Below, one piece after another: positions 1-23,034 of a DNA stretch of 24,433 bases. The notes beneath the pieces were generated by a model. It was not told the origin of the DNA and ran no database searches. It worked only from the letters and a program-made list of their open reading frames with translations. Origin of the DNA: a bacterium (lineage in GTDB: Bacteria > Patescibacteriota > Patescibacteriia > Buchananbacterales > UBA6539); the NCBI GenBank assembly GCA_023246815.1, contig JAHFHR010000001.1, positions 1 through 24,433 on the forward strand, given 5' to 3'. The stretch's first letter is position 1. Each line of letters begins with the position of its first letter. Both the position numbers and the translations under genes were made by a program.

Positions 1-23
1 TCATAGATTTTTAGTAACCACTG

Positions 24-45
24 CCCCGCCTTTGGCGGGGTTTTG
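24..45 (+). terminator. Rho-independent terminator of an upstream gene
   Basis: CCCCGCC(24-30)-TTT-GGCGGGG(34-40) followed by TTTT; a possible stop TAG lies at 4-6. Confidence 0.8.
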
Positions 46-67
46 GTTTTTATGAGGTTTATATTGA

Positions 68-96
68 TGGACACTAACATCATTTGAACGTATAAT
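68..96 (+). promoter_or_regulatory. sigma70-type promoter of the glycosyltransferase operon
   Basis: TGGACA(68-73), 17-bp spacer, TATAAT(91-96), 32 nt upstream of the ATG at 129. Confidence 0.7.
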
Positions 97-128
97 AGTA
101 CTAAGTATTTGTTCTATTTTTTAAGGAA

Positions 129-1619
129 ATGAGCCTCTTTCGTCAATTAACACCAGTCAAGATTGTGCTGCTGGCCGCAACGCTGGTGGGGGTATTTTTT
201 GTTGTGTACAGTCCACATTTTTCATACCCATTCCCCTTTCATATTGATGAGTGGCACCACATTGATCAGTCAATTTTGCTGGGGAGCTATGGTGATTACT
301 TTGATCGCTTACGCGTTGACCTTGAGGCGCGACCGAACAGTTTTGAAATCGGCTTTCATTTATTTTTACTACTACTGTCGCTTATTGTTAACGTCCCTAC
401 CACGCTGCAATTTATGCCCGGGCTGTGGGCGGTGTTGACGGCCAGCGTTCTTTTTTATACGACCTACAAATTAACTCGAGGTAATTTTTTGGCAGCGTGG
501 CTGGCAATCATTTTTTTTGCATCAATCAAATCAAACGTTAATCTAACGGGGCTGTGGTTTTTTACGCCCTTGACGTTTGCCGCACCATTTTTGTTTTTAT
601 ACATGTATTTATTCAGTGAGGGACTATTGCGTCAGGACAAGCGAATGGTGCTGGGGAGTCTTGCCATTATGGTATTTTTAATTCCGACCCATTCGGTCTC
701 ACTTTTGTTTGCGTTGCCGGCACTGACCATGTACGGTCTTTTTTATTGGAGATATATCCTTTCGGAATGGAAGTTTTTTTGGATTTTTTTGGTTATCCCA
801 GTAGCTGGTTTTATCTTTTTTAAGGATGCGCTTGGGCTTGCTTGGGGGGAAGCGTTTGTGCACTTTGCGCAAGGCATTCAGTTTCCCTATGGTTGGGGGG
901 TTTTAGAGTTAAATAATTCTTTATTCGAGGTGTACACCCTTGTTGGTGTTGTTTTTGCATTTGCCGGAGTTGTTTTGATTACCATGAAGCCAGAGCGGTG
1001 GCGATTTTTATTGTACCTATTATGGCCACTCAACGCTTTTATACTCATTGTGCTTTTTAGAGCAACTGGCATCTCATTTTTGGCCCCTTTCCAGCGCAAT
1101 CTATACTACTTGGCACTGGGGTTGCCAGTATTAAGTGGTGTGGGCGCCGCGCACCTTATCACTTTTACCAGTGAGCAGTTTAAGCGTTTTTTGTCATCAG
1201 CCAAGGATATTGAATATATAACCAAGGTGCTTACCGTTGGGGTGGTTATGGTAACCGTTCTTTTTTCATTTGTTTCTTACTACGAGGTTCCGGCCGGACT
1301 CGAGCTTTACCAACCGATTAATAAGGCAGACTACGCCGCGCTTCAATTTCTAGCTCAGCAACCACCAGGGCATGTTTTAGCATCACCGTTTGTATCAACG
1401 GCGGTGTTCTCGGTGTCAGGCATGCGTCCGCTAGCAACGGTTTTCTTTGATTCACAGTTTCGTGGCATCACGGAGCAATTTTTTGTTGTTGACTGTGAGC
1501 AAAAAAATGCATTGCTGCAGGGCGTTGAGGAGCGTCTGTATATTATTTCACAGCGAGCACTTACGTGTGGTTGGAATACTATTTATAATGATGATGATTA
1601 TATTTATCAAATAAATTAA
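129..1619 (+). CDS. Polytopic membrane protein, putative GT-C-fold (PMT/ArnT-like) glycosyltransferase
   Basis: 496 aa with many hydrophobic segments; acidic motif FHIDEWHH in the loop after TM1; soluble C-terminal tail; first gene of a GT operon. Confidence 0.6.
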   Translation: MSLFRQLTPVKIVLLAATLVGVFFVVYSPHFSYPFPFHIDEWHHIDQSILLGSYGDYFDRLRVDLEARPNSFEIGFHLFLLLLSLIVNVPTTLQFMPGLWAVLTASVLFYTTYKLTRGNFLAAWLAIIFFASIKSNVNLTGLWFFTPLTFAAPFLFLYMYLFSEGLLRQDKRMVLGSLAIMVFLIPTHSVSLLFALPALTMYGLFYWRYILSEWKFFWIFLVIPVAGFIFFKDALGLAWGEAFVHFAQGIQFPYGWGVLELNNSLFEVYTLVGVVFAFAGVVLITMKPERWRFLLYLLWPLNAFILIVLFRATGISFLAPFQRNLYYLALGLPVLSGVGAAHLITFTSEQFKRFLSSAKDIEYITKVLTVGVVMVTVLFSFVSYYEVPAGLELYQPINKADYAALQFLAQQPPGHVLASPFVSTAVFSVSGMRPLATVFFDSQFRGITEQFFVVDCEQKNALLQGVEERLYIISQRALTCGWNTIYNDDDYIYQIN

Positions 1620-1626
1620 TTCCGGC

Positions 1627-2328
1627 ATGTCTAAACAATATCCAGAAATTTCCATTATTTTACCCTGTCGTGATGAGGAGGCAGCTATTGGTTGGTGCTT
1701 AGAGCAGTTACGGCTGGTGATCACTTGCTATAATCTTTCAGCTGAAATTGTTGTCTCTGATTCTTCTTCTGATCGATCTCCCGAAATTGTCGCACAGTAT
1801 GCGGAGGTAAAATTAGTGAAACATAATCAGATTGGCTATGGCCGTGCCTATTTGGCAGGAGCGGCCGCGGCCACCGGGCAGTATTTATTTTTTGCCGATG
1901 CTGATGCCACCTATGATTTTCAGGAGATCCCTCGCTTTATTGCCGGGCTACGAGATGGGGAAGATTTTGTTATTGGTAATCGCTTTGCAGGGGCAATTGA
2001 ATCAGGCGCCATGCCCTGGCTACACCGATATTTGGGCAATCCGTTGTTGTCTGCCTTAACACGGTTCATTTTTAAACTATCAGTACGTGATGTACACTGC
2101 GGTATGCGCGCGCTTAAGCGTTCTGCCTTTGAAGCGATGCAATTAAAAACGTCGGGCATGGAGCTTGCCACTGAAATGGTGGTAAAAGCTAAAGTCCTTG
2201 GCCTCCGCGTTGCTCAACTGCCTATCAACTATCATTCGCGGCTCGGGACTTCAAAATTAAAGACTTTTTCTGACGGTTGGCGCCATTTGCGGTTTATGGC
2301 AAGCGCCATGAATATGAATGAGAAATGA
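1627..2328 (+). CDS. GT2 polyprenyl-phosphate glycosyltransferase (DPM1/ArnC-like)
   Basis: ISIILPCRDEE, VVSDSSSD, GYGRAY, FADADATY (DxD), DVHCGMRA, ELATEM, YHSRLGTSKL motifs. Confidence 0.85.
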   Translation: MSKQYPEISIILPCRDEEAAIGWCLEQLRLVITCYNLSAEIVVSDSSSDRSPEIVAQYAEVKLVKHNQIGYGRAYLAGAAAATGQYLFFADADATYDFQEIPRFIAGLRDGEDFVIGNRFAGAIESGAMPWLHRYLGNPLLSALTRFIFKLSVRDVHCGMRALKRSAFEAMQLKTSGMELATEMVVKAKVLGLRVAQLPINYHSRLGTSKLKTFSDGWRHLRFMASAMNMNEK

Positions 2329-3947
2329 GCATGTTACCACTACCGGTGCTCAGTCATCCCAAACGTTTAGCGTGGGGGCTATTGCTACTGAGCACTATTT
2401 TTTTGTTAGGGTATCAGTTACGCGCGTACCACGATATTCACTCTTTTTTACCGTATTCTCCCTACGAAGCTTACGATGCGCATACTCTTGAGCGCGGAGA
2501 CCGTTTTTTTAGCGACCACATTCCCCTCTATCCGACTAAGTTTTTGATTCGTTTGGTAACAGAAACTTTTTTTGGTTCACTGTATGTCCTCTATCTCGCT
2601 GGCTTTGTCGCGGTTTTCTTACTGGGGCGTTTTTTTTCAAAAAATGATCTTGGAGGCGTGCTCGCTGTTATGTTATATGCGATTGCCCCTGACAATCTAC
2701 TCCAGTATACTAAAACGGTTTTAGTAAATGATAGCGGTGTGTCGTATATTGCAGCACTTTTTGCAATTCTGTCGCTTGGGGCTTATCTACGATCAAGGCT
2801 TCGAGTATGGCTACTTTTATTTTTTCTCTGTGGTGTGATTGCGCTCACCTCATATCATACCGGAGCAGCGGCATTCGCAATAATCCTTCTTGCTTCGTTG
2901 GGATCTCTGGCGTTGAGTAGTATGTTAAGCATCAGCTCCGCGATCACTATTGGTGGATTACTACTTCTTTATAGCGTTTGGTTGATCTTTGTCGATCCCG
3001 AGCAGTTCGCGCTTTTTTATCAGACCGTGCGACCGGACATGTTAGCGTATGCGCTAGCTGGCTTGCTGGTAGCAGTTGGTGTACTTTTTTTATTTTCTCT
3101 TTCTAGATTCTCCAAACGACTTTACAGCCTCTCTGAGTGGTTGCCGCTACTTGCGGTAGTTAGCGGGGCGCTACTATTGCTAAGCGACACTGATATTTTT
3201 GGTAGACTACTAGGAGTGAGTTCAGATTCAGGTGGGCACTATTTGTCTTTGCTAACGCTCAACAGTGCTTTAGCACAGGCGCTGTTGGTCTGTTTGTATA
3301 GCAGTATGGTAGTGCCGTTTTTCTCTAAACGAATCTTAAACCTTGAGCAGACACTCTTGCGTGGCTGGATGGTCGGGGTAGTATTGGTTGGGGTAGCGCT
3401 TATTGCTGGCGGGTACATGAGTCGGATACCCGACTATCTATTTCCTATTTGTTATGTATTTTTTGCATGCTATTGGTCGGACCGCTTTAGATTCAGAAAA
3501 ATTGTAGTGATTGCCACTGTATTACTATTAGTTGTTGCGCAACTTCGTATCTTGGAAGATCCTTTTTCACAACGCCGTTTTTATACTTTGGCTGAAGTGG
3601 AATCTGCTCGTGCAGTTGCCGCTCGTAACCTAGCAGGACCAGTGATGTCTGACTTGCGTACCGCCGCGCTATTACGGTACGTTGGGATGTCCGACGTTCA
3701 ATTTTTTTCCGAAAATAGTACAGAGCACCACACATTGTTTTATGGGTACGATCAACTTTATCCTTCTGATGATACGTCGTACGTGATACTCACTCGTGCA
3801 ATGCGTGATGTCGTGTATGCCACTAATTTTCAAACGACACCACTTGATGCCAGCGTATATGCTTTTTATCGAGAACGATTTACCGAGGTATACAGTGATG
3901 GAATATTTTATGTCTACGAACTTTCCGTGCCTCCTAATCTGCAATAG
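2325..3947 (+). CDS. Polytopic membrane protein, possible GT-C-like glycosyltransferase
   Basis: 540 aa, largely hydrophobic; acidic loop YEAYDAH after TM1; soluble C-terminal domain; ATGA overlap with the GT2 gene. Confidence 0.5.
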   Translation: MSMLPLPVLSHPKRLAWGLLLLSTIFLLGYQLRAYHDIHSFLPYSPYEAYDAHTLERGDRFFSDHIPLYPTKFLIRLVTETFFGSLYVLYLAGFVAVFLLGRFFSKNDLGGVLAVMLYAIAPDNLLQYTKTVLVNDSGVSYIAALFAILSLGAYLRSRLRVWLLLFFLCGVIALTSYHTGAAAFAIILLASLGSLALSSMLSISSAITIGGLLLLYSVWLIFVDPEQFALFYQTVRPDMLAYALAGLLVAVGVLFLFSLSRFSKRLYSLSEWLPLLAVVSGALLLLSDTDIFGRLLGVSSDSGGHYLSLLTLNSALAQALLVCLYSSMVVPFFSKRILNLEQTLLRGWMVGVVLVGVALIAGGYMSRIPDYLFPICYVFFACYWSDRFRFRKIVVIATVLLLVVAQLRILEDPFSQRRFYTLAEVESARAVAARNLAGPVMSDLRTAALLRYVGMSDVQFFSENSTEHHTLFYGYDQLYPSDDTSYVILTRAMRDVVYATNFQTTPLDASVYAFYRERFTEVYSDGIFYVYELSVPPNLQ

Positions 3948-3949
3948 CC

Positions 3950-5881
3950 ATGTTTGTGCCTAAGTTATCATCGTTACTCCGAATCCCCAGCCAGTACACG
4001 GCGTGGCTACTCTTGTTGGTTGTGGCAGCGTATGTGCTTCGTATATTGCCCTATGCACTCGGGTATAACTTGCCTATCGCTCAAGAAGGAATGCGGGATT
4101 TTCAGCAGGTGCAGTACTTACTTGAGCATCACCAGATCAATGCGACAGCTAGCTACTTTGATTATGGTGCGTTCCCCGTGCTGCATATACTGGTTGCGGC
4201 TATTGCCTGGCTTGGGTTTGATCCGCTGCGGGTTTTTCTTTTTGTGCCCCAGCTGTTTCCCAGTATTGGATTAATTTTTTTCTATTTTTTTCTAAGTCGT
4301 TACTTTTCAAAAGCTCAAAGTCTCTGGGCAATTTTTTGTGTAGCAGTATTTATCCCCCACATCTATTGGACCGCGCAACCAGTGCGCGAAACAACGGGGT
4401 TATTTTTCTTTCCGCTCATTATCTATGGACTTGATCGTGTCCTGCAGCCCATTACTAGGCAGAAGCGCTGGGCATGGTGGCTATTTCTGGTGTCTTCACT
4501 TGGGTTGCTGGTTGTTACCCACCATTGGACAAGCGTAATGGTAGTCGCATGGATTTTTGCTTATAGTTTAGTCTGGGTTGATAAACCTCGGCCTGTTGCC
4601 ACGGGATTATTGCTTGGAACTGGATTTCTAAGTGTAACCTTGCTCTACTGGTTTTTCTTTTTTGAACGCGGCCTTGAACTATTATATTCTCTGCTGTCGC
4701 CCGTACCGCTTGTGCTACTACTCGGAGTATTGTTATCCATAATGCTCGGTCACACGGTGAGTACTGGTTCGGTCGCGCTACGCTGTATTAGTGCGTGCAG
4801 AACCCTTCCTGGAGCAATTATTGCTTCTGTTCTTGGGGGCTCCGCAGCAGTAGTGGTTGGATTTTTTTTACTACCAATTAACTATCCGCTACTAGTGTGG
4901 GGATTTTTTATTGTCCTAGCAGTGTTATTTTTTATCGGATTTTTTAAGAGATCAACTCTGCACACCGATCAATTATTGCTTCTGTCTACCGCCTACCTAT
5001 TAGTGTGGCCCGTGGTGATGCCGCTGGTGCTATTGGGCAATGATTTAAATACAGTTCCTTTTGATCCTTTTAGAACAGCTGAGTTTATTATTTATCCGTT
5101 AAGCCCATTAATTGCTGCTGGTATACTTTATGCACTGCGCACTAGTCGTTGGTTCGCCTACCTGGCCATCGTGCTACTAGGAGCGCTCTCCACTATGGCA
5201 TACCCAACTATCTATATTTTTAACACTAATTTTTATGGTACTCTGTTATATGATATTCGTAGTGACTTGCGATACATTTCCCCTGCTGTTCAGCAGCTGG
5301 TGTCTTTGGCCGCTGCGGACGGCAAGGCTGTGCGTACGCCTTTGTCAGAAATCGCCACCTACCAAGAAGCATTTTTTGGGGTCAAATCGAGCCAGTATAC
5401 TTTGGTGACCGCACAAGACCAGCGAGTAAAGAATCACGCCGCTTTGATTAATCACGAGATCGCTGGCGTTAGTATCAACGAATACTGGGAAGATTATCAG
5501 AGTATTTTTCCAGAACTCATTGTAGCTCGGCGCGGCGAGGATTTATTATTGCGAGATCCATTGCTTGATGCTGGGTTTATTTCACAAACCGCTGATCGAT
5601 TGCTGACCATTGGTGCTGTGCCAAGTGTCACCGTAGTATATGAAAATACGGGGACTGACCGGTGGCGAACTAATCGCGGTGATGAGCTAACTAGTAATCA
5701 TGGCTATAGTATCCCCTTGCCTTATGATGTTGTACCCGGAGCTCGTGTTACTTTTTTTGCTATACAGCCTCTTGTTGGCATCCTTGGTGTTTATGATGTT
5801 GTCTGGAGGATGCATCGCCCAGGCCTTGGATTTTTTGGTTCATCAAGCCCAACCACTACGGTTACCTTGATTAGAGAGTAG
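3950..5881 (+). CDS. Polytopic membrane protein, possible GT-C-like glycosyltransferase with C-terminal Ig-like domain
   Basis: 643 aa, many TM segments; acidic loop QEGMRD after TM1; C-terminus YENTGTDRW...LPYDVVPG...YDVVWRM...FFG resembles NBR1/FW Ig-like domains. Confidence 0.5.
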   Translation: MFVPKLSSLLRIPSQYTAWLLLLVVAAYVLRILPYALGYNLPIAQEGMRDFQQVQYLLEHHQINATASYFDYGAFPVLHILVAAIAWLGFDPLRVFLFVPQLFPSIGLIFFYFFLSRYFSKAQSLWAIFCVAVFIPHIYWTAQPVRETTGLFFFPLIIYGLDRVLQPITRQKRWAWWLFLVSSLGLLVVTHHWTSVMVVAWIFAYSLVWVDKPRPVATGLLLGTGFLSVTLLYWFFFFERGLELLYSLLSPVPLVLLLGVLLSIMLGHTVSTGSVALRCISACRTLPGAIIASVLGGSAAVVVGFFLLPINYPLLVWGFFIVLAVLFFIGFFKRSTLHTDQLLLLSTAYLLVWPVVMPLVLLGNDLNTVPFDPFRTAEFIIYPLSPLIAAGILYALRTSRWFAYLAIVLLGALSTMAYPTIYIFNTNFYGTLLYDIRSDLRYISPAVQQLVSLAAADGKAVRTPLSEIATYQEAFFGVKSSQYTLVTAQDQRVKNHAALINHEIAGVSINEYWEDYQSIFPELIVARRGEDLLLRDPLLDAGFISQTADRLLTIGAVPSVTVVYENTGTDRWRTNRGDELTSNHGYSIPLPYDVVPGARVTFFAIQPLVGILGVYDVVWRMHRPGLGFFGSSSPTTTVTLIRE

Positions 5882-5887
5882 ACTGTT

Positions 5888-6979
5888 ATGCGAGTTGCCA
5901 TTTTCCACAATTTTATGGACAATATCGGTGGTGCTGAGTATGTTGATTTAGTTCTTGCTCAAGCGCTCGGTGCTGATATTTATACCACTAACATCAACCA
6001 AGGGAAGATTGCTAAGCTTGGTTTTTCAACGGACAACATTTTTAGCATCGGTTCTGTGCCGGTCAATCAACCCCTGCGCAATGAAGCAGCGCATCAGCGA
6101 TTTAAGCGTCTGAATTTGGGCACTCGTTACGATGCCTATATTATTGCCGGTGATTGGGCAATGGCTGCTGCTATTCATAACAAGCCCAATCTTTGGTACA
6201 TTTATTCTCCGGCTCGTGAAATCTGGGATGCTCACGAATTTACTCGGCAGACATTGGTACCTGCGCCAGCTCGTCCTTTATTTACGGCTTGGGCAAAGCA
6301 TCATCGCAGACAAACGTTACAGAACCTGCAGCATATTAATCGTTTTGTTGCTATTTCTGAAAATGTTCGTTCTCGGGTGCAACGTTACTTGAGGCGTGAT
6401 GCTGTGGTGGTTCACCCACCGACGGACACTCAGCGTTTTAGGTATCAGGGAAATGGAGATTTTTGGTTGTCAGTTAATCGGCTATTCCATCATAAGCGCG
6501 TTGAGTTACAGCTTCAGGCGTTTTCGATGTTACCCCAGGAACAGCTGGTGATTGTTGGCTCATATGAGCGTTCACGTCATTTCCGTCGCTATGCTCAAGA
6601 GATGGAGCGGCTTAAGCCAGCCAACGTAACCTTATTGCACTGGGTTGATGCGCAGGCACTTGTTGATTTATATGCTCGTTGTCGGGGATTTTTAACCACT
6701 TCAATGGACGAAGACTATGGAATGGGGCCGGTTGAGGCAATGGCTGCAGGTAAACCGGTCATTGCTCCGAATGAAGGAGGGTACCGTGAAACCGTTATTG
6801 ATGGTCAAACTGGGGTGCTTATTGATGCTATCACCCCTGAAAAAATAGTAGCTGCGATAGGTGTGGTTGGTCCTCGTGCCGCTGAATATCAAATAGCCTG
6901 TCAAAAACGAGCCCAACAGTTTGATGTATCGATTTTCATTTCTAAAATGCAAGAACAGCTTAATGAGCTTATTAAATAA
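5888..6979 (+). CDS. GT4 (GT-B fold) glycosyltransferase
   Basis: N-terminal RVAIFH...GGAE; EDYGMGPVEAMAAGKPVIA (EX7E motif); GGYRETVIDG. Confidence 0.9.
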   Translation: MRVAIFHNFMDNIGGAEYVDLVLAQALGADIYTTNINQGKIAKLGFSTDNIFSIGSVPVNQPLRNEAAHQRFKRLNLGTRYDAYIIAGDWAMAAAIHNKPNLWYIYSPAREIWDAHEFTRQTLVPAPARPLFTAWAKHHRRQTLQNLQHINRFVAISENVRSRVQRYLRRDAVVVHPPTDTQRFRYQGNGDFWLSVNRLFHHKRVELQLQAFSMLPQEQLVIVGSYERSRHFRRYAQEMERLKPANVTLLHWVDAQALVDLYARCRGFLTTSMDEDYGMGPVEAMAAGKPVIAPNEGGYRETVIDGQTGVLIDAITPEKIVAAIGVVGPRAAEYQIACQKRAQQFDVSIFISKMQEQLNELIK

Positions 6980-7828
6980 ATGAAACCGACTGTTTCTGTT
7001 ATTATTCCCGTGTATAATGGCGCGGCAACGCTTCGTGCGTGCCTTGCATCCGTGTTAGCACAGGCGTACCCTAGTTTTGAAGTGATTGTGGTTGATAATA
7101 ATTCTACTGACACCACAGCTGATATTATTAAATCGTTTGGTGATCAGGTGCGCTCTGTGTTTTTAGCGAAAAGGGGTCGTGGTAATGCTCGCAATGCAGG
7201 CATTGCTGCCGCGCACGGCGACAGTATTGTTTTTACTGATTGTGACTGCATTGCCTCGTCCGACTGGCTGGCTTGTCTTGTCGCGCCGCTACTCAGTAGT
7301 AGCGCCAGTGCCGTGACCGGATTTCATGTTGCTGCTACTACTGACTATTGGGCACGACAGGTACAGCAACGCGATCAGATTTACTTTGATCGAGTCCGAA
7401 ATGGAGAATGGATTCATCATGTTGACACTAAAAATTTTGCTATCGATGGCACACTAATGCGTGCGATGTTATTTAATGAAAGTTTGCAGAATATGGAAGA
7501 CTACGATTTTTGCCTTCGGCTTACGACCGCTGGTGTGCCTATTTCATTTGCTCCTAACGCAGTAGTGGCCCACCACCACCGTTCATCATTGCGCGCAGTG
7601 ATAGCCACTAATCTTTCTCGCGGATACTGGATCGGGCGCGTACAGCGCATGCATCATTCTCGGCAGATAGTACCTCCTATGGGCGAGAGTTTTAGTCTGG
7701 GGAATGCAATTAGTTTTCCGATTTGGCTGGTAGGGCAGCTCGTTCGTCATCCCGCGCACTTCCCCTATCTCTTTATTTCTGAAATCAGTTGGCGACTCGG
7801 CAGTATTTGGCAATTTTTTAAGTTATGA
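6980..7828 (+). CDS. GT2 (GT-A fold) glycosyltransferase
   Basis: VSVIIPVYNG, VVDNNSTD, ARNAG, FTDCDC (DxD), EDYDF. Confidence 0.9.
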   Translation: MKPTVSVIIPVYNGAATLRACLASVLAQAYPSFEVIVVDNNSTDTTADIIKSFGDQVRSVFLAKRGRGNARNAGIAAAHGDSIVFTDCDCIASSDWLACLVAPLLSSSASAVTGFHVAATTDYWARQVQQRDQIYFDRVRNGEWIHHVDTKNFAIDGTLMRAMLFNESLQNMEDYDFCLRLTTAGVPISFAPNAVVAHHHRSSLRAVIATNLSRGYWIGRVQRMHHSRQIVPPMGESFSLGNAISFPIWLVGQLVRHPAHFPYLFISEISWRLGSIWQFFKL

Positions 7829-8865
7829 ACGATCATCGTAAAAATCTTTTAGTTACCTTGGCTGATCGGGCCTATCTGTCAGCTGCACAGCAGCTATTTG
7901 CGAGTGCCCACTTGCACGGCGGTTGGGATGGCGATTACATGTTGCTCACCCCAGAGGACGTTGATGATTCTGAGCTTGCGTGGTTTTACCGACAGGGGGT
8001 TGTTGTAAAAAAGTTGCCCATTCCTGTGCACTACGCTGGTGCGACTGGCTTTCCGTTAACTATTTATTTAATGCTGCATCTGTTTACGCCAATGGTTGCG
8101 GCGTGGGATCAGGTGGTGTTTATAGACGCAGACTGTATTGTTCGCGCCTCACTTGCTGAACTATCTCATGTACCTAGTTTTTCGGCAATTCGTGATGTGT
8201 TAAAAATGAAACTTGCTGATCAATTTCGCTGGTATTTTGTTCAAGTTTCTAGTGCCTCTCTTTACCAACTTTCTCCTGTCTCTCATCTTGAATACAAGAA
8301 TACCTATTCGCGGTTGAAACACGAGTACCCACTCCGCAGCCCTTCGTTTAATTTGGGAGTACTTGCGTTTCCAACATCAATTATTACCGACGAGCTACTA
8401 AGCAACTTACATCGTATCTACCAAACATACGGGGCCATCGGAGCTTTTGCAATTCAAGGCGATCTCAACCTTCTTTTTGCTGAGCGCTGGCACCACTTGC
8501 CTCCCGCATACAATGCCTTTGCTTATTATTGGATGAGCCACTACGGACTTTCTCGGGAGCGCGTTGACGGAGTGTTGCTCCATTTTGCTGGAGGGCCGAA
8601 GCCTTGGGAAACGAGCAATCCTTTTTATCCGGAATGGAAGGAAAATTTTGATGCTTCCGAGAATATTGATCTTCAAATATTTCGACCAGCAACCCGAATT
8701 TGGAATACGGAGGAGTTGGAAGAGCACCAGCTTTTTATGGATACTAAACATTTTGAATATACAGTTTGGTTTACGATCGATCGTAGTCTTGGTAACCTCG
8801 GTAAGGCAGTTCGTTGGTGCTCACCACGACTATATGACTTCATAAAACGACTGATTGTCGGATAG
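7825..8865 (+). CDS. GT8 family glycosyltransferase
   Basis: VFIDADCIV, FNLGV, QGDLNLLF, LPPAYN and LLHFAGGPKPW are characteristic GT8 motifs. Confidence 0.85.
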   Translation: MNDHRKNLLVTLADRAYLSAAQQLFASAHLHGGWDGDYMLLTPEDVDDSELAWFYRQGVVVKKLPIPVHYAGATGFPLTIYLMLHLFTPMVAAWDQVVFIDADCIVRASLAELSHVPSFSAIRDVLKMKLADQFRWYFVQVSSASLYQLSPVSHLEYKNTYSRLKHEYPLRSPSFNLGVLAFPTSIITDELLSNLHRIYQTYGAIGAFAIQGDLNLLFAERWHHLPPAYNAFAYYWMSHYGLSRERVDGVLLHFAGGPKPWETSNPFYPEWKENFDASENIDLQIFRPATRIWNTEELEEHQLFMDTKHFEYTVWFTIDRSLGNLGKAVRWCSPRLYDFIKRLIVG

Positions 8866-8883
8866 GCGGCAATGGTATATCAT
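8855..8883 (+). promoter_or_regulatory. Possible internal sigma70 promoter for the acpS-ACP-ligase-acyltransferase module
   Basis: TTGTCG(8855-8860), 17 bp, TATCAT(8878-8883), at the largest intergenic gap of the operon. Confidence 0.4.
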
Positions 8884-8906
8884 AAGGTAGTAATTTGTTT
8901 ACTTGT

Positions 8907-9269
8907 ATGAACACCGCTACCATTGGGCTAGGCGTTGATCTTGAAGAAAATAAACGTTTTTTAGGGTTGGATCGCGTTGCTGATCGGCCATTTTTAGAAA
9001 AAATTTTTACCCCACAAGAGCTGGACTACTGTTTCAGTAGGCCGCTACCGGCACAACATTTATGCGCTTGTTTTGTCGGCAAAGAAGCAGTCATTAAAGC
9101 TCTGGGTAGTTGCGGTCAGACTATCAGCAGCTACCACGATATTGAAATTGGCCATGCGTCTGACGGCGCACCGGTTGTTACCCTTGCTCATCATCCAACA
9201 GCACACGTTACCATTAGTCTTTCGCACAGTGCCCAACAATCAGTAGCATTTGTGCTTCTGTATTGGTGA
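8907..9269 (+). CDS. acpS: Holo-ACP synthase (4'-phosphopantetheinyl transferase, AcpS type)
   Basis: IGLGVD, IFTPQE, KEAVIKA and ISLSHS motifs; ATG at 8907 preferred over TTG at 8895. Confidence 0.85.
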   Translation: MNTATIGLGVDLEENKRFLGLDRVADRPFLEKIFTPQELDYCFSRPLPAQHLCACFVGKEAVIKALGSCGQTISSYHDIEIGHASDGAPVVTLAHHPTAHVTISLSHSAQQSVAFVLLYW

Positions 9270-9517
9270 ATATGAATATACAACAACAAGTCATCGCCAT
9301 CTTTTGTGACTCAGTTGAACATTCAGTGGATCGAGATACGCTGGATCTTACTATGCCGCTAAAAAATATGCCCTACATTGATTCCCTAACGCTTCTGAAG
9401 TTTGTTTCAGCCATTGAGGCTAGGTACAAAGTTTCAGTGGCGATGAATGAGGTTGATCAAGTTTTTCGCAGTATCGGTAGTGTTGTTGCCTACATTGAAG
9501 CTCATCACTCTACATGA
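9266..9517 (+). CDS. Acyl carrier protein
   Basis: ~83 aa with IDSL (phosphopantetheine Ser) followed by LLKFVSAIEARY; GTGA overlap with the acpS stop (alternative ATG at 9272). Confidence 0.85.
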   Translation: MNMNIQQQVIAIFCDSVEHSVDRDTLDLTMPLKNMPYIDSLTLLKFVSAIEARYKVSVAMNEVDQVFRSIGSVVAYIEAHHST

Positions 9518-11013
9518 CCTCTGTTGATCCAAAAGAGCTACTGATTGCCATGGTTACGCGGCAACCGGACGTGCCAGTGCTGATTGCCGGTGATCACATC
9601 GTGACCCATCGGCAGTTTTTAACGCTGGTTGAACACGCTGAGGCTAAACTTGATCAACTTGGCGTGACTCCGGGCAGCACTGTTGGTGTGGTTTTGCCCA
9701 ATAGTCTTGAGCTGCTCGTGCTCACTCATGCGATACTATGGCGCAAGGCCATTGTGTTTCCTATTGCACCGACGGTTACGCCAGCTGAACTTACTCAGCT
9801 TGTTGGTCCGACCACGCTTGCATTGTGCATTGTCCCACCTTTTTTATCGTCGCTTACTGCCACATCCTTTGCGGCGAAAGTTGTCCAGGTTACTACTGAT
9901 TATGCCTCATTAGACTTGATTGTGGTGACATCCGACAGCACGCTTGTTCCAAGTTTGGTCGCACCATTCTCTGCAGGTAATCCCTATGTTGTTCGCCTTG
10001 TCTCTTCTGGCACCTCGGGCGCCTATAAACAGGTACTGCATACCGCCGCAGCCCTGTTTGCTATGGGCGCCAACCTTACGACCGCATACCACTATCGGAT
10101 TGGCGCGGAGCGCGCGATGATGCTGGTGCCACCGAGTCATCTTATTGGTTTTGGCTATTTAATGTCGCCTATTTATTTCGGTTGGACTAACATTATTACC
10201 AATGGCTTTGTTCCACAACAGTTTATTGCCGAACTGCAGCACCATCGCGCCACCCTACTGTTTGCCACGCCATTTATTTTTGAAACCCTTGCCAAAGTCG
10301 CTCCTGCTGATCTTGATTTGTCGCACTTACAAAAGGCGGTATCTAGCGGTGGGCCTTTGTCTGAGGCCGTGTATCGCAGCTTTACCAGTCGGTGCCGAGC
10401 GTCGCTACACATAATGTATGGCTCCACTGAAGCAACAATTGTGACCGCCCGAATTGATGATGGAAATTATTCTGGAACAGATGTTGGTAAGCCGGTTGCT
10501 GACATGATTGTTAAAGTTTTTGATGATCAAAAGAATGAATTACCAACTGGATCAGTTGGTAATGTCGCCGTATCCGGCCCTACGGTTATTAGCGGGTATT
10601 TCAACAATGACCGGGCCAACGTAGAATTGTTTGTTAATAATTTTTTACTAATGGGCGATCGTGGATTTCTTGATGCTACTGGCAATCTGCATATTGTCGG
10701 TAGAACAAATTTGGTAATCAGCGTCGGCGGACTCAAGGTTGATATTATGGAAGTTGAGGCCGTACTTGCCGGGCACCCTAGCGTTGCCGAAGCACTGGTG
10801 TATGGCGTGTCACAGGCCAGTACTGAAGTGGTCAAAGCTGCGGTCGTATGTACTGATACGACCTTGACTACTGAAGCCCTCATGCAACACTGCCGCGACC
10901 ATTTGTCTGACTACAAAGTTCCCAAAGAGATTATTTTTGTGCCCCAGCTCCCCCGCAGCGCTACTGGCAAAGTAGTGCGCGGCGATGTCGCGGCCTTATT
11001 GAGTAAAAAATAA
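9514..11013 (+). CDS. Class I adenylate-forming enzyme (acyl-CoA / acyl-ACP synthetase-like)
   Basis: SSGTSG..K P-loop, PPSHLIG, YGSTE, GDRG, GR, EVE and PRSATGK motifs. Confidence 0.9.
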   Translation: MTSVDPKELLIAMVTRQPDVPVLIAGDHIVTHRQFLTLVEHAEAKLDQLGVTPGSTVGVVLPNSLELLVLTHAILWRKAIVFPIAPTVTPAELTQLVGPTTLALCIVPPFLSSLTATSFAAKVVQVTTDYASLDLIVVTSDSTLVPSLVAPFSAGNPYVVRLVSSGTSGAYKQVLHTAAALFAMGANLTTAYHYRIGAERAMMLVPPSHLIGFGYLMSPIYFGWTNIITNGFVPQQFIAELQHHRATLLFATPFIFETLAKVAPADLDLSHLQKAVSSGGPLSEAVYRSFTSRCRASLHIMYGSTEATIVTARIDDGNYSGTDVGKPVADMIVKVFDDQKNELPTGSVGNVAVSGPTVISGYFNNDRANVELFVNNFLLMGDRGFLDATGNLHIVGRTNLVISVGGLKVDIMEVEAVLAGHPSVAEALVYGVSQASTEVVKAAVVCTDTTLTTEALMQHCRDHLSDYKVPKEIIFVPQLPRSATGKVVRGDVAALLSKK

Positions 11014-11819
11014 TGTCCATCCCAACTCCTAAGCGCGTAGCCGTTGTTATTTATTCACTAGTACGTCAGCGCGCGCGAGCACTACCCGCAGCTATAGTCT
11101 CTCTTGCATGGGTGTTACCGCGACTGCCCTATCTTCTGCGCTCTATTCATGCTATTAAAAACGCGGTTCGTCCAGCTGAATCAACGATTCGGTTTTTTTT
11201 TCAGATGCGGCGCTTTCAGAATTTGTATGCTCGTTCAGACTATATCCAAAATTTTCGTAGTAAAAATATTGTTTCTGACGAAGCTGCTGCCGCGCAGTCC
11301 AGCACGCGACCGATTATTTATTTAAGCTGGCATCACGGCGCCGGACGCATTGAAGAGCTCTCGCGGCGCGCTGACCCCCAAGCCTATATTTTTAGCGCTT
11401 ACAGCTTTACAACGCCTCGCACGCTGCCGGCTGATCATCAAGCGCTGGTGAAGATGTCCAAGATACTCGCTGCTGGTGGACGTCTGGTTATTACCTTTGA
11501 CGGGCAGTTTGGCCAGCTTGATCTGGAGAATAGTATTTTTGGGGTGCCGCAAAATTTATCTAGCTCCTTTTTATATCTGATTAAACTCCACAATCCAGTG
11601 TGCATTCCAATGACGTTTTACGCGCATGATACTGGCGAGGTTGATATTTTTTACGGCCCTGATTTGAATGCTTCCGGCGCACTTACTCGCCGTGAGTATA
11701 GCGATGGGCTGCAGCATGTCTTGGAATATTTTACCCAAGATTTTTTAGCACACGGCTCGTATCAGATTGATTATCGTTTTTTACTTTATCCCGAACGAAT
11801 TAAACTATTGCCGTGGTAA
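11013..11819 (+). CDS. LPLAT-fold acyltransferase, LpxL/HtrB- or PatA-like (divergent)
   Basis: IIYLSWHHG, LAAGGRLVITFDG, IFGVP and PVCIP blocks correspond by eye to LpxL-like blocks; TAATG coupling to the ligase; catalytic HX4D/E spacing is not canonical. Confidence 0.55.
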   Translation: MSIPTPKRVAVVIYSLVRQRARALPAAIVSLAWVLPRLPYLLRSIHAIKNAVRPAESTIRFFFQMRRFQNLYARSDYIQNFRSKNIVSDEAAAAQSSTRPIIYLSWHHGAGRIEELSRRADPQAYIFSAYSFTTPRTLPADHQALVKMSKILAAGGRLVITFDGQFGQLDLENSIFGVPQNLSSSFLYLIKLHNPVCIPMTFYAHDTGEVDIFYGPDLNASGALTRREYSDGLQHVLEYFTQDFLAHGSYQIDYRFLLYPERIKLLPW

Positions 11820-11840
11820 TTTTTATCACGGCGGTAGTAT

Positions 11841-11879
11841 CAAAACTCCTCCCGGAACATCTTTTAGGGAGGAGTTTTG
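11841..11879. terminator. Bidirectional terminator between convergent operons
   Basis: Perfect 13-bp stem CAAAACTCCTCCC(11841-11853)/GGGAGGAGTTTTG(11867-11879), with T-runs at the stem base on both strands. Confidence 0.8.
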
Positions 11880-11886
11880 TACTGTT

Positions 11887-11940
11887 TTGTCGACTATGTT
11901 GTTGGCGTGGTTGTCGACTATGTTGTTGGCGTGGTTGTCG
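11887..11940. repeat. 24-bp tandem repeat (2.25 copies) spanning the giant gene's stop codon
   Basis: TTGTCGACTATGTTGTTGGCGTGG at 11887-11910 and 11911-11934, plus partial TTGTCG at 11935-11940. Confidence 0.95.
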
Positions 11941-14900
11941 GTGTTGCTGCTGGCGCTGGAGTGCCCGGTGGTTCAATGACACAGCTGCCGTCATCTTGGG
12001 TCGCATCGGCATTAAAATTATTTGCATCGGCGTTGGTACAACCAAGTACTGTTGCCGGGGGTTCTGACTGCTCAGCCCCCTCATTGGCAATCTCAGGCCC
12101 AGGTTGTGGTTTGTTGTCCGAACCAGCCAAGATTAGTATTGTTTTTGACAGCTCAACTTCATTCGTGCCATCTGACACAATAACGCGCACCGTCATCTCG
12201 GTATTTTCCGTTGGCAAATCACCTTCGTTTGCCTGCCAATACACAATGCCTGATTTTCCATCTACTTTGCCGATGTGCGGGGACAGTACCCAGCGGTAAC
12301 GCAGATCTTTGTTTTCGGTGTCGGGGTCGGTAACCTGCGCCCAGAATTCAACGGGCACACCAGCGCCTACTGATTGATGCGAGAGTATTAAGTCGTTGAT
12401 TACTGGCGCGGTTTTACTGGCTGCCAAACTGCCGTCAATAGCAAGCGCGATCCAGTCAAAGGTGACTGACTCATTCACCGTGTTTTCCAGCGCAATGGTG
12501 AAGCCAGTGGCGGTTTTGTCAATAATTTTCCAGTTGACAAATACGGCAGAGTCGTCAGACAAGTTGGCCACGATTTTCGGCACCGTGCCATACTCACCAT
12601 CAAAAGTTACCTGAGTACTGGTCGCATTGGCTTTTACTACAGCACTGCCAGCCTGATCACCTGAAACATAAAGTTTACCCAAGATTTTAACGTCTTTTCT
12701 AAAGACAACAATGTGTTCAAATTGAGCTTCGCCTTTGACAACGATCGTACCATAAAATGTGGCGGCTTGGTTAACGATTAGCCTGTCATTGTAGGTTACT
12801 GGTGCACGGTAGATTACTTCACCAGTTACTTCAACTGGTTGATCAATGTACAAGGTGTTTGCAGCTACATTTGGACTTTGACCTTCTTGGGCAGTTGGAT
12901 TGCTGGAACCTTGGAGTAAGCCTTGGATCTGTTCTTGTTGCTGTTGGAGGGCTCGAATAATGACCGGTGCAAATTTATTGTAATCAATAGACCAGATGTG
13001 TGTATCGTCACCAGGGTGGACTGCTTCCGGGATAATATCTAACACTTCCTGTGCAACAAGACCGATAGTATTAAATCCTTCCCCGGTGAGTACCAGTTCG
13101 CCATCCACAAATGTAGCTCCGAATTGATTATATCGTTTTGGTTTCAGTTTCATGATTTCAGCAATACCATAATCAAGTTGTTGTTGATTTTTTTTAATAC
13201 GATCATCAGAGCTGTCTGTCCAACCGATGGCATTTCCATAACCCGTATTGCCTGATCCTGCTAGTGGTAGTACCACTGAGTAGCCGGTCGCGCTAGTGTC
13301 AATAGCACCACTGTCCAGGGCAACATTTCCGGTTGAACCATGAATCGCCAGTCCAGTATTGGTACCCAACACCCCCCCATTCTGACTTGCTGCATAGCTG
13401 ATCATAAACTGGTCGCCAGTACTTGAGTTATCAATACCCATGATATAGTCAACACCTGAAGCAACTGCAAATTCAAGTGCCGCATCGCCAGTACTATCTT
13501 GTTCAATATACAATTCAGGAGTAGCTGTATCGGTGTCACTAACATATACGTGCAAGTTAGAGCCAGGGGCGGCAGTGCCAATACCGACATTACCCGTTCC
13601 TAAATATACATTATTAGCTGAAGCATTATATATTGAATAATTAGTTGTTCCAGCAGGTCGTGTACCAATTAACAGCCCAATTTCTTCTGATGCAAATCCT
13701 GTTTCTTCAACGATATTTAATCCAACATAGCTCCTCATAGCATCTGCCGTACCACTATAGGTAGAGTTAATCCTCATAGCGTATCCGTCACTAGAAACTT
13801 CTGCACCTGATTCGTCAAATAAAGGGATAAGATAAAGACCATGACCATCATCAGCATTACTACTAAAATCAACCTCTCCATCAATTAACACTATACCATC
13901 GACACTAGCTGAAGTATCAGATAATGTTCCACCAAAACGAACTTGTGAAACATTGTCCAATGAAGAACCAAACGCTGATTGGCTAGAGGCGGTAAAGTTG
14001 CCCGTGGTTGTGGCGTTGCGGCCGACATATAAATCACCAGTACCAAGAGCAGGTGTTATACCAAATGTTTTACCAATCTGGACGTACCCAGTGGTTGAAG
14101 CATTGCCTGATGAATCAATAGTGAACAGCTCACCTGAGCCGACCGTGAAAAGCGATGCTGGCGAGGTATCACCGATACCAAAATCCCCGCCATTGAAATA
14201 CGAATCAGCTGCTGTGTGCAATAATACATCTGCATTACCAGAAAGATCGTAAAGGTTTATTAGAGAATCTCCAGCACTACTTTGTTTTAAATTTATACCA
14301 GGTGTTCCAAATCTATTTGTAGCTTCTAGGTAATCTCCTGATGTTCCCCAATTAAAGAGTTTGAGAGCATAAATACTGTCCGTTCCATTCTTTTCAACAG
14401 TAAGCCCTGCCGAAGTATCTGGAGTGGTAGTACCAACACCAACACTATTAGTATCAGCCTGCACGACAAGGGTTGTGCCGTCCACCGTAAGATTGCCGGT
14501 GGTGGTGGCATTGTTACCGACCCACAAATCACCTGAGCTAAGCGCTCTACCATTATTTGCCTTTCCAATATTGAGGTAACCAGTAGTTGAGGCATTACCT
14601 GATGAATCAATGGTGAACAGGTCACCACTGCCAACCGTGAATAGCTGGCTTGGTGTTCCATCGCCAATACCGATGTTACCGGTTTCTTCAACGAATAAGG
14701 CTGTGGTTGCTGAACCAGCAGTATTAGGACGTACTTGTAGTGCGATAGAACCGGTGTTTACTGCTGCCCCTTTTTCAAAAAGAATTCGGGCAATGGCACT
14801 TTTGTCAGCGGTGGCAGTAGTATCGAAATTCATTACGTCAATTTGAGCTACATCTCCGTCAGCACTGGTTCTTAAGCCTTGCAACTCAGTAATCGCCGAT

Positions 14901-20765: not shown

Positions 20766-21980
20766 ATGCGGCTACGGAACGATCTTATTTTTGTAATAAT
20801 AGGCGTTGGATTAATGCTTGCGGCATTTACTTTAAATCCGTGGATACTAGAGTATTTTTTTTCTCCTGATCGGCACCTTGATTTTATCTGGAAATACGTA
20901 TTGATCCTTTGTCTAGACAGCCTTTTGTTTATTTTTGGTTGCCTCGTGGTCTTGCCAAGACCACGGCTTTTCTTAAGCTCCTATCGGTATAAATTTTTGA
21001 CATTATGTGTTGCTCTCTTATGTGCTTTTTTAATTGCCGAGGTACTAGTAAGGATCTTGGATACACAGACTGATCTCACTATTTCTGACAACACACTTGG
21101 CACTATTCCAAACCCTGGGCTACGTCCGGAGTCGCTTGGTTTTCAAGAAACCGAACTTAACTTTGCCAATCTTGCGCAGGACAATCTTGTGTACGCTATT
21201 GGTGATTCATTTGCTTATGGATACGTAGATTACGATGACAATTATCTTACCATTGTTGATGAAAATTTTCCCGAGTATAATGTTGTTAATCTAGGAGTTT
21301 GGGGGCATCAACCTTGGCAGTATTTTGAGATGATTAAACGTTATTCAGAAATTAGAAAACCAAAGTACATCTTACTCAATTTTTTTGTTGGTAACGATTT
21401 TTATGACGTAGAGAATGTTGATTTTTATCTTCGGCAACGCCCTTATTTGTCACCACTCTTTACACTGAGTGAATTTTCGAAACTTATATCCGAGGCTAAT
21501 CAGTTTTTAGTCGCCACTATTTTGAACGAAGATTTTTTTCTACATGTTAACAGGTTGTACTTTGAAGTGAGTCGCAAGCAGTCGCTGTCACCATGGCAAC
21601 AATCTACTGACGCTTCTTTACAATCAATTGATGATATCATTACGTACACTAGTACTCGCGATATTAAATTGGTAGTTTTAATTTTGCCTTCAGAGCCACA
21701 GGTTGACATAACGTTGCGCGAAACTATGCTTAAGCGATTTTCTCTAGAGTCTCAGGATTTTGATATTGCACGACCTCAACGTATCTTAACGGAGCATCTT
21801 GCTTCTGAGGGCATTCCTTTTATTGACTTATTGCCATCATTTCAAGAGGCTGGTAAAACCGAGAGGCTCTACTTACCTAGAAATACCCACTGGAATCCGG
21901 CGGGTAATGCGTTGGCCGCTGACGTAATTACTCAACAGCTTAGGGATACTAATTTTTTCACCAATAATGTTTCGGAATAA
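20766..21980 (+). CDS. Membrane-anchored SGNH/GDSL hydrolase-family protein (AlgX/AlgJ-like)
   Basis: N-terminal TM segments; IGDSF, NLGVWG, GND and NTHWN blocks. Confidence 0.75.
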   Translation: MRLRNDLIFVIIGVGLMLAAFTLNPWILEYFFSPDRHLDFIWKYVLILCLDSLLFIFGCLVVLPRPRLFLSSYRYKFLTLCVALLCAFLIAEVLVRILDTQTDLTISDNTLGTIPNPGLRPESLGFQETELNFANLAQDNLVYAIGDSFAYGYVDYDDNYLTIVDENFPEYNVVNLGVWGHQPWQYFEMIKRYSEIRKPKYILLNFFVGNDFYDVENVDFYLRQRPYLSPLFTLSEFSKLISEANQFLVATILNEDFFLHVNRLYFEVSRKQSLSPWQQSTDASLQSIDDIITYTSTRDIKLVVLILPSEPQVDITLRETMLKRFSLESQDFDIARPQRILTEHLASEGIPFIDLLPSFQEAGKTERLYLPRNTHWNPAGNALAADVITQQLRDTNFFTNNVSE

Positions 21981-23034
21981 AAAAGTTTATATTTTTATCG
22001 GCGTATTGATTAGTTTTTTGGTATTTTTTTTCTGTTTAGTTGGGCTTGAAATACTATTACGGACTTGGCCGACGATGCTGCTGGGAAATAATTTTACAAA
22101 TGAAATACGATCAAAGTATCATGGGGGCGATGACGGTATCTATTGGTATGATTCAGCGTTGCGGATTAAAAGAATGAAACCTCACTATGAAACAACTATG
22201 TATTTTAATGAGTATGAATGGCATCACACAACTAATGCGGATGGTTTTAGAATCGCTGATGATCGTACTGATGCCGATATTGTGCTACTTGGTGATTCAC
22301 TTATTTATGGTCATGGACTCGATGACGATGAGTCCATCGGCTATCTTCTTGATGCGCAGTCACAATTAACTTCTGCGAATTTGGCACTTCAAGGTAATGG
22401 TTCGTTTGACAATTTTGTTATTTTTAATGCTTTTACCTTTAATTATCACCCGAAGTATATTTTTTATTTCTTTTTTGGTAATGATCTGACGGATTTTAGG
22501 GGACACCAAGATGTTGATGTTACCCTTAGAGAGTTAAACGATTTCGTTGCTACTCCTTTGGATGAATTTGATTTTTCGAATCTTCAGCCAAGTCCATATG
22601 TTGAACACACTGACGAATCTCGGCCACTGGCGATTGAAGTCGCAGTTAGATTTTTTGTTCACCGCGCCCTTGAGTTTTTAGGTGTGGAAGCGCCACTTGA
22701 TGGATATACTGATTTCGAGGACGAATTACTATGGGAGTATACGGAGAAAGTATTGCAGTACATGAAGTACAAAGCTGATGCCATTGATGCGGAGTTTGTA
22801 CTAGTGCCAGCGACCACATTTTATCAGTACACCAATGTTAATGATGAACAATATGAAAGACTTCATACCATTGCCGATGATTATGACATTTCTTTTATTG
22901 ATTCTCGGTCAATTGGTCGTGATTCAAAAAATTTTCTCCATCAACACTATGATGGACACTACAGTGAAGACGGTGCTCAAGTAATAGTGGATCTACTCTT
23001 GCAATTTATCGCAGATCACCCCGATGGTGTATAA
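21967..23034 (+). CDS. Membrane-anchored SGNH/GDSL hydrolase-family protein
   Basis: N-terminal TM; LGDSL, NLALQG, GND and DGHY blocks. Confidence 0.8.
   Translation: MFRNKKVYIFIGVLISFLVFFFCLVGLEILLRTWPTMLLGNNFTNEIRSKYHGGDDGIYWYDSALRIKRMKPHYETTMYFNEYEWHHTTNADGFRIADDRTDADIVLLGDSLIYGHGLDDDESIGYLLDAQSQLTSANLALQGNGSFDNFVIFNAFTFNYHPKYIFYFFFGNDLTDFRGHQDVDVTLRELNDFVATPLDEFDFSNLQPSPYVEHTDESRPLAIEVAVRFFVHRALEFLGVEAPLDGYTDFEDELLWEYTEKVLQYMKYKADAIDAEFVLVPATTFYQYTNVNDEQYERLHTIADDYDISFIDSRSIGRDSKNFLHQHYDGHYSEDGAQVIVDLLLQFIADHPDGV

Follow-up and report, generated by a model that had tools for sequence, protein, structure and literature searches.

We analysed a 24,433-nt stretch of DNA from a bacterium of the Patescibacteriota (Buchananbacterales, UBA6539; assembly GCA_023246815.1, contig JAHFHR010000001.1). 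This stretch, hereafter the window, is the whole 24.4-kb contig C17 of the genome bin G000. Eleven of its genes, g1 to g11 (129-11819), join a set of glycosyltransferase (GT) genes to a cassette for an AcpS-type phosphopantetheinyl transferase, an acyl carrier protein (ACP), an adenylating ligase and an acyltransferase. On the sequence evidence the cluster is a composite of a conserved GT core and a rare accessory cassette, not a row of random neighbours. With a probability of about 0.5 it specifies a pathway in two layers that leads to a membrane-associated, acylated glycoconjugate, i.e. a glycolipid or lipoglycan, by a logic similar to that of phosphatidylinositol mannoside (PIM) and lipomannan synthesis and with a scavenged acid. 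The reading is carried by the families and folds of the products, the tight packing of the genes and the recurrence of the cassette next to GT8 and GT4 genes. Almost nothing is known of the surface chemistry of Patescibacteria, which are believed to rely on other cells for their lipids. The cluster offers a concrete candidate route by which scavenged acids would be turned into an anchored or hydrophobic surface glycoconjugate. The bin (0.74 Mb, 94 contigs) is 88% complete, so that every genome-wide absence reported below is provisional.

Layout of the cluster and families of its products

All eleven open reading frames lie on the plus strand, with junctions between a 7-nt overlap and a 41-nt gap. 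From g1 to g11 these measured +7, -4 (ATGA), +2, +6, 0, -4, +29 or +41, -7, -4 and -1 nt (TAATG). The largest internal gap, 8866-8894 or 8866-8906 depending on the start of g8, comes after a weak promoter-like site that begins at 8855. The site at 68-96 was the sole match above 9/12 in 1-12500 and follows the GC-rich hairpin at 23-41; promoter-like sites as a class were not enriched (15 observed, 20 ± 4.5 expected). At the distal end the hairpin at about 11841-11879 folded with -32 kcal/mol (z = -5.8), none of 200 shuffled sequences was as stable, and U-rich runs followed. It had escaped a pattern scan because its loop comprises 13 nt. The operon-like packing of the eleven genes is real, and a single transcript is predicted. 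A metatranscriptome of the same sample (X3) gave no cover of 1-12100 save a 36-nt unrelated match. Convergent to the cluster runs a gene for an 1835-aa fibre-like protein (11918-17425), and the SGNH genes past it (20766-23034) are a separate unit.

The first-pass annotation, made from the letters of the window, had described this row with its short gaps and overlaps, a promoter at 68-96 and one terminator at 11841-11879, and had listed three GT-C-like proteins, two GT2, one GT4, one GT8, AcpS, ACP, a ligase and an acyltransferase. The row was found as described, the promoter was the best match of the region, the fold energy bore out the terminator, and the Pfam, NCBIfam and fold results agreed with the list of families (Table 1).

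Table 1. Features of the cluster and its borders, with positions in the window
Feature	Position	Strand	Basis or remark
Terminator-like GC hairpin with T-run, upstream	23-51	+	8 pairs, 7 of them GC; T-rich tail; closes upstream unit
Sigma-70-like promoter TGGACA-17-TATAAT	68-96	+	11/12 consensus match
g1, GT-C-fold membrane glycosyltransferase, 496 aa	129-1619	+	fold match; Pfam none
g2, GT2, polyprenyl-phosphate-hexose-synthase-like (DPMS/AglJ/ArnC type), 233 aa	1627-2328	+	PF00535 2e-26
g3, GT-C-like membrane protein, 540 aa	2325-3947	+	fold match; Pfam none
g4, GT-C-like membrane protein, 643 aa, with an additional soluble domain at the C-terminus	3950-5881	+	multiple transmembrane segments; sub-threshold PMT_2
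g5, GT4 (GT-B) glycosyltransferase	5888-6979	+	PF00534 7e-27
g6, soluble GT2	6980-7828	+	PF00535 8e-33; DCD motif
g7, GT8 retaining-type glycosyltransferase	7825-8865	+	PF01501 1e-10
Weak promoter-like site TTGTCG-17-TATCAT	8855-8883	+	9/12; overlaps g7 stop and g7-g8 spacer
g8, AcpS-type 4'-phosphopantetheinyl transferase	8895 (TTG) or 8907 (ATG)-9269	+	PF01648 4.5e-16; TIGR00556 above cut-off
g9, acyl carrier protein, DSL serine motif	9263-9517	+	PF00550 1.6e-7, above cut-off
g10, ANL-family adenylating ligase, 499 aa	9514-11013	+	PF00501 3e-52, PF13193 3e-19
g11, LPLAT acyltransferase of LpxL/LpxM/PatA structural type; rare unannotated subfamily	11013-11819	+	fold
Strong hairpin, probable bidirectional terminator	~11841-11879	.	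between g11 and the convergent 1835-aa gene

The acyl cassette ends with g11, the fold of which matches the LPLAT superfamily in the LpxL/LpxM/PatA branch, as expected for the acyltransferase that had been annotated. At the N-terminus a long helix (residues 6-52) recalls the membrane-associated N-terminal parts of enzymes in this family. The subfamily is rare: among 1.84 billion clustered proteins only 20 representatives were found; a word-based homologue search with g11 returned a single relative, and the family profile found no solved structure by sequence. Six of 16 relatives matched PF03279 weakly (best E 2e-4). Across these 16 sequences H107 was kept in at least 90%, D163 was invariant, and the motifs WHHG and FDG were retained. 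PatA and VexE use a dyad of a catalytic histidine and a distant acid (PMC9597891); H107 and D163, taken from the alignment and not mapped onto these structures, are consistent with such a dyad. From the adjacent ACP and the GT8 neighbours the donor of g11 would be acyl-ACP or acyl-CoA and its acceptor a glycolipid or sugar. The ligase g10 preserved the motifs SSGTSG, YGSTE and the C-terminal GK. Its best NCBIfam match was the long-chain-fatty-acid ligase PRK06187 (241 bits, below its cut-off), and its closest PDB entries were oxalate-CoA and fatty-acid CoA ligases (1e-42 to 1e-36).

The three membrane proteins were assigned to the GT-C class, g1 and g3 by fold and g4, the least tested of the three, by a PMT_2 match only (9.7e-5; 23.1 bits, below the cut-off of 26.1). 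A crude hydropathy scan yielded 12 to 14 hydrophobic peaks in each; as some of these overlap, the proteins have fewer helices than peaks. BLASTP among the three detected no paralogy except one weak match in a transmembrane region. The Atlas model of g1 (predicted TM-score, pTM, 0.85) showed TM-scores of 0.70-0.77 to PMT_2 and STT3 clusters. For g3 the Atlas features reached 0.98 to RgtA-D-like and PMT_2 clusters, with TM-scores of 0.50-0.59 to PMT_2, GT39 and GT22 clusters. The AF2 model of g3 was weak (predicted local distance difference test, pLDDT, 61; pTM 0.61) and almost wholly helical to about residue 411. Its 25 best PDB matches were all GT-C enzymes (STT3, DPY19, AglB, ArnT, PglB and ALG12; best E 6e-6), while the O-antigen ligase WaaL scored E 0.6 and no flippase was among the significant matches. 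A word-based homologue search with g3 found 2 relatives. A flippase or polymerase identity of g1 and g3 was considered and is not supported, in keeping with the first-pass view of these proteins.

In g1 the residues H38, D40, E41 and W42 (HxDEW after the first transmembrane segment) were invariant across 6 orthologues, and in g4 the same held across 5 orthologues for D50 in the loop after the first transmembrane segment. E48 of g3 is a consensus residue outside the invariant columns. The conserved acidic residues of g1 and g4 would face outward in the first loop. All three enzymes may use a polyprenyl-phosphate-linked sugar donor, the pointer to this being the adjacent g2. Most of the Atlas clusters nearest to g1 and g3 are archaeal (Nanobdellota, Methanobacteriota and Thermoplasmatota).

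The best NCBIfam matches of g2 were AglJ (4e-32) and Dol-P-hexose transferase (6e-31), both under the equivalog cut-offs, scores that do not settle its sugar or its precise family. Its closest solved structures were DPMS of P. furiosus (5mlz, 1.8e-13) and ArnC, and it carries a DAD motif (DxD). A transmembrane segment is missing from g2, while its orthologues in the loci L016, L020 and L030 comprise 376-406 aa; that of L030 carries the multi-helix C-terminal membrane domain PF26629, which the G000 copy is without. The loss of PF26629 is clean, and g3 begins on the ATGA overlap. Some members of the DPMS-type family function without a transmembrane domain, e.g. human DPM1.

The GT4 enzyme g5 is the best conserved product of the cluster, with 52-61% identity in relatives and L030. 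Its C-terminal half (residues 178-345) matched PDB entry 2f9f, 'first mannosyl transferase wbaZ-1', at 5e-47. Together with the largely archaeal Atlas clusters of g1 and g3 this match makes the GT half look archaeal-like. The GT8 enzyme g7 displays the motifs DAD and HFAGGPKPW and matched WbbM at 1.4e-5.

Recurrence of the glycosyltransferase core and the acyl cassette

The locus L030 (18.7 kb) repeats 9 of the 11 cluster genes in order. It starts with rpsP and the KH gene, followed by g1 (48% identity), g2 (59%), g4 (34%), g5 (61%) and four GT8 genes (27-38% to g7). On its cassette side an opposite-strand gene for a DegT aminotransferase precedes g8 (48%), g9 (36%), g10 (34%) and g11 (25%), and an opposite-strand ABC_tran plus ABC2_membrane pair (Wzm/Wzt-like; L030:17117-18534) stands directly after the acyltransferase gene. 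No orthologue of the DegT gene or the ABC2 exporter genes was found in G000.

The cassette itself kept the order AcpS, ACP, ligase, acyltransferase on L022/L023, L030 and L027-29, in spite of only 23-25% identity of g11. Partial cassettes comprised ACP and acyltransferase on L002, and ligase and acyltransferase on L003 and L026. The cassette has GT8 genes at its flanks in L022, L030, L027-29, L002 and on the contig C76 (see below); in every locus of the candidate phyla radiation (CPR) type with identifiable flanks a GT8 gene is part of the same row, in each directly beside the cassette except in L030. On L027, L022, L002 and C76 the cassette adjoins GT4 or GT8 genes. In L027 the neighbour directly before it is g5 (58%), and after it follow a GT8, a PlsC-type acyltransferase, a further GT8, two GT2 and a polysaccharide deacetylase gene. 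The first-pass annotation had coupled a GT half to an acyl half and would have been contradicted by a complete lack of co-occurrence elsewhere; L030 carries both halves in order, and the GT4 and GT8 neighbours on L030, L027, L022, L002 and C76 bear the coupling out. A trio of acyltransferase, small protein and ligase genes apparently also exists beyond CPR-like loci. In L045 (GCA_037146775.1, JBAWWL010000007.1, 8001-10679) the gene of a distant relative of g11 is followed by those of an 82-aa protein and an ANL ligase, with no adjacent AcpS; the locus also contains GT9 (heptosyltransferase family), GT2, other glycosyltransferase, radical-SAM and methyltransferase genes.

The core is more common. 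Orthologues of g1 were present in 10 of 60 relatives searched, namely in 8 of 19 genomes of the same family (42-48% identity) and in both genomes of the sister family. In the seven g1-orthologue loci that we read g1 was accompanied by g2 or g5 and often by g3, g4 or g7; g1 and g2 stood together in six of these seven and in L030. All seven hold GT genes only and none of the cassette genes. On the other hand, g11 was found neither in the 60 relatives nor in 400 genomes sampled across the phylum. Because the relatives' loci are restricted to GT genes and g11 was missing from these 460 genomes, we regard the acyl half as accessory.

A variant of the cluster was recovered in the same bin. Contig C76 (3841 bp) holds g5-g6-g7-g8-g9-g10 in the same order, corresponding to 5930-9800 of the window, with protein identities from 92% down to 55%. 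At the DNA level the identity is a mosaic: 83-94% over g5, 66-75% over most of g6-g7 with one window at 91%, 92-93% over the end of g7, the spacer and the start of g8 (windows 8781-9080) with flanks at 64-75%, and 64-71% over g9-g10. The DNA runs containing the window are groundwater metagenomes, and variants at about 90% identity occurred on contigs of the DNA runs X1 and X2. C76 probably derives from a co-binned strain or sister population, and its mosaic has the look of a surface-glycan locus whose alleles recombine among coexisting strains. Such mosaic divergence between two variants found side by side points to a variable surface structure as the product, perhaps one with a part in interactions with hosts or phages.

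The same data bear on the view that two independent systems lie side by side: g1-g5 for outer glycosylation of a wall polymer or protein of the three-component type, g6/g7 with g8-g11 for a small acylated glycolipid or sugar, and co-transcription as incidental. The seven GT-only loci and the missing g11 in 60 relatives speak for it, as does the cassette on L027-29 and L022, which is accompanied by GT8 or GT2 genes and no visible GT-C genes. The promoter-like site at the g7-g8 junction lies in the stretch that is 92-93% identical to C76, and in L030 the opposite-strand gene splits the halves, so that the cassette can be a transcription unit of its own. L030 nevertheless has both halves adjoining in the same order, and in L027 the core GT4 gene (58%) is directly upstream of the cassette. 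In addition, several of the supporting metagenome contigs are short, and on those of L022 and L027-29 GT-C genes may lie past the ends. We consider two separate systems unlikely, yet a contender to be kept in mind, and favor a joint pathway.

The proposed pathway and its alternatives

For the joint pathway to an acylated glycoconjugate we propose the following topology and order of steps. At the cytoplasmic face the soluble enzymes g5, g6 and g7 would use nucleotide sugars to assemble a short glycan on an acceptor in the membrane. g8 would convert g9 into its holo form, and g10 would adenylate a carboxylic acid, most likely a fatty acid imported from outside, and load it on holo-g9. The acyltransferase g11, presumably monotopic like PatA and LpxM, would then esterify the acyl group from the ACP to a sugar hydroxyl of the intermediate, probably on the sugar added by the GT8 enzyme. 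g2 would make polyprenyl-phosphate-hexose, which would be flipped; with this hexose g1, g3 and g4 would extend or decorate the product at the outer face.

An external source of the fatty acid is likely because the genome shows no fatty-acid synthase (FAS). Neither a ketoacyl synthase nor a PF01553 (PlsC) acyltransferase was found in G000, and its only PP-binding and AMP-binding genes are those of the cassette and of the C76 copy. The nature of the acid was judged from the acyltransferase branch. In characterised LpxM/PatA-type enzymes a hydrophobic tunnel accommodates chains of C10-C16 (PMC9597891), and in none of the loci read did the four-gene cassette include a gene for making or modifying an acid; for these reasons we favor a fatty acid. 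If the glycan were instead decorated with a small acid (organic, hydroxy or amino), as in the Dlt system or by the products of the tetronate genes in Vibrio cholerae O1, this would accord with the oxalate- and malonate-CoA ligases among the best solved relatives of g10 and with the weak resemblance of g9 to FAS-type ACPs. The C10-C16 chains of the LpxM/PatA fold and the lack of acid-making genes argue against such an acid, as does the operon itself, which is without an MBOAT protein (DltB) and closes with an LPLAT instead of a DltD-type gene. We judge a small acid improbable. The likeness to Dlt (DltA, DltC, DltB and DltD) is that of an ANL ligase loading a small carrier to modify an envelope glycopolymer. 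Assignment to the Dlt family was rejected, the operon having neither DltB nor DltD and its transferase being a cytoplasmic-face LPLAT. DltA models were not among the best 25 NCBIfam matches listed for g10.

The same gaps in lipid metabolism could be read differently, with the cassette as a device of membrane-lipid salvage that re-acylates host lysolipids in a PlsC-like manner and has no role in glycan synthesis. A genome in which PlsC and fatty-acid synthase were not found and the place of g11 in the LPLAT superfamily would agree with this, and one study reports that lysolipids are enriched in CPR bacteria (10.1101/465690). We rate lysolipid salvage as very improbable.

As to the outer layer, the GT-C enzymes might O-glycosylate secreted proteins with the 1835-aa fibre as candidate substrate and g2 as source of the donor, like actinobacterial Ppm1/Pmt; the cassette would then be unrelated or act on the same glycan. 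The sub-threshold PMT_2 match of g4, the similarity of g1 and g3 to PMT_2/STT3 clusters and, in the genome G013, a fibre-like gene some 10 kb away from the g1-g2-g5 core are in line with this. A GT-C fold, however, does not reveal the type of acceptor, most core-bearing relatives displayed no fibre gene in the stretch read, and the association of GT8 genes with the acyl cassette would be left unexplained. Protein O-glycosylation is a poor candidate. The first-pass annotation had left an acylated glycan, a glycolipid and protein glycosylation open; the fold of g11 and its GT8 neighbours now favor an acylated glycolipid or lipoglycan and disfavor the protein.

None of the 11 products matched a Pfam or NCBIfam model of the Wzx, Wzy, ABC-exporter or nucleotide-sugar families, and ABC2_membrane had no match above the cut-off in G000. 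The claim that the operon contains no such genes was therefore upheld. The further claim of a route other than classical O-antigen or capsule synthesis stands for this operon and does not extend to the genome, which has Wzx-like genes on C75 and C78 and Wzy_C-like genes on C41, C78 and C75; in L030 the ABC2 pair adjoins the cassette. On contig C20 (2094-5247) a GtrA-family gene adjoins two GT2 genes, of which one is g2-like. These make up a second polyprenyl-phosphate-sugar system, and its GtrA protein could supply the flippase that the operon is without.

Several observations weigh against the pathway as drawn. The GT-only loci of the relatives imply that acylation is optional and that the two halves might make separate products, and the opposite-strand gene of L030 parts the GT8 genes from the cassette. 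No flippase or exporter was identified for the acylated intermediate. On the enzyme side g2 may be impaired by the loss of its C-terminal membrane domain, and the confidence of the g3 model is low. Ligases for oxalate, malonate, aryl and fatty acids reach similar scores with g10, and the nearest structures fix no acid. Finally, g11 itself had no significant Pfam match, PF03279 included, and its 16-sequence family shows no conserved H(X)4D/E motif, the X4 position not being acidic.

A more far-reaching version of the proposal would have a bacterium unable to make fatty acids or glycerolipids build its own glycan membrane anchor, by esterifying scavenged fatty acids onto sugar in the style of VexE and PatA through a private AcpS-ACP-ligase-LPLAT cassette. 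The cassette would then be a portable lipidation module for GT8 loci in Patescibacteria, with a looser form in the GT9 locus L045. We put this forward as a speculation that is more likely wrong than right by a wide measure.

Comparison with known systems and genomic setting

The classes of the components are all known, and precedents exist both for three-component GT-C systems and for the ACP-fed acylation of glycolipids by LPLAT enzymes. New are a self-contained AcpS-ACP-ligase-LPLAT cassette whose acyltransferase comes from an unannotated LPLAT subfamily, the fixed link of this cassette to GT8 loci and its occurrence in a genome in which no fatty-acid synthase was found. Ppm1 is a polyprenyl-P-mannose synthase and PimE a GT-C mannosyltransferase. 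The mycobacterial PIM/lipomannan pathway, with the GT4 enzymes PimA and PimB', the acyltransferase PatA, Ppm1 and GT-C mannosyltransferases such as PimE, resembles the cluster in its logic, an analogy that does not imply membership. The identity of g11 to PatA is about 9-10%, and PatA uses acyl-CoA, whereas a dedicated ACP with AcpS and ligase is present here; moreover, the cluster has a GT8 and a second GT2 enzyme, and PimB' matches g5 only weakly (2.7e-4).

VexE of the Vi-antigen locus (Salmonella Typhi and Achromobacter) has a TPR extension and works with a housekeeping ACP and beta-hydroxyacyl chains from FAS in a diderm cell. The present cassette, in contrast, brings a private ACP, AcpS and ligase, and neither FAS nor an ABC2 exporter was found in G000. 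In rhizobia a dedicated ACP, AcpXL, feeds the LpxL-family acyltransferase LpxXL, which attaches a special acyl chain to a glycolipid. There the chain is made by dedicated Fab enzymes encoded alongside, while here a ligase takes this place; the acceptor is not taken to be lipid A, genes for which were not searched for.

In three-component GtrA/GtrB/GT-C systems such as CsbB/GtcA/YfhO, which acts on lipoteichoic acid, a GT2 enzyme makes a polyprenyl-phosphate sugar that a GT-C enzyme uses outside the membrane (PMC8035078, PMC5836110, PMC11127046). The adjacent g1 and g2 resemble such a GT-C and GT2 pair. The differences are that the operon encodes no GtrA-type flippase, the one present being on C20, that three GT-C genes share one synthase, that g2 has no membrane domain and that the acyl cassette is without counterpart there.

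g11 defines a rare unannotated acyltransferase subfamily that comes with its own carrier-protein machinery in the readable loci. The products g8-g11, small and soluble or monotopic, are suited to reconstitution in vitro.

A relative of the 1835-aa fibre gene was observed in L019 (G013:C16; 1069-4914 and 15337-18988), about 10 kb from a g1-g2-g5 core, a weak hint that fibre and glycan cluster are neighbours more than once. The glycan cluster is located inside a conserved neighbourhood that extends from rpsP-KH to trmD (L030:2168-3156; L020:15327-16019; window 23044-23712). rpsP-KH is directly upstream of the cluster in L030; trmD comes after the cluster in the genome G004 and further on in the window. 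What lies between the GT genes and trmD differs from genome to genome; in the window it is the acyl cassette, the fibre gene, helix-turn-helix genes and the carbamoyltransferase/SGNH genes.

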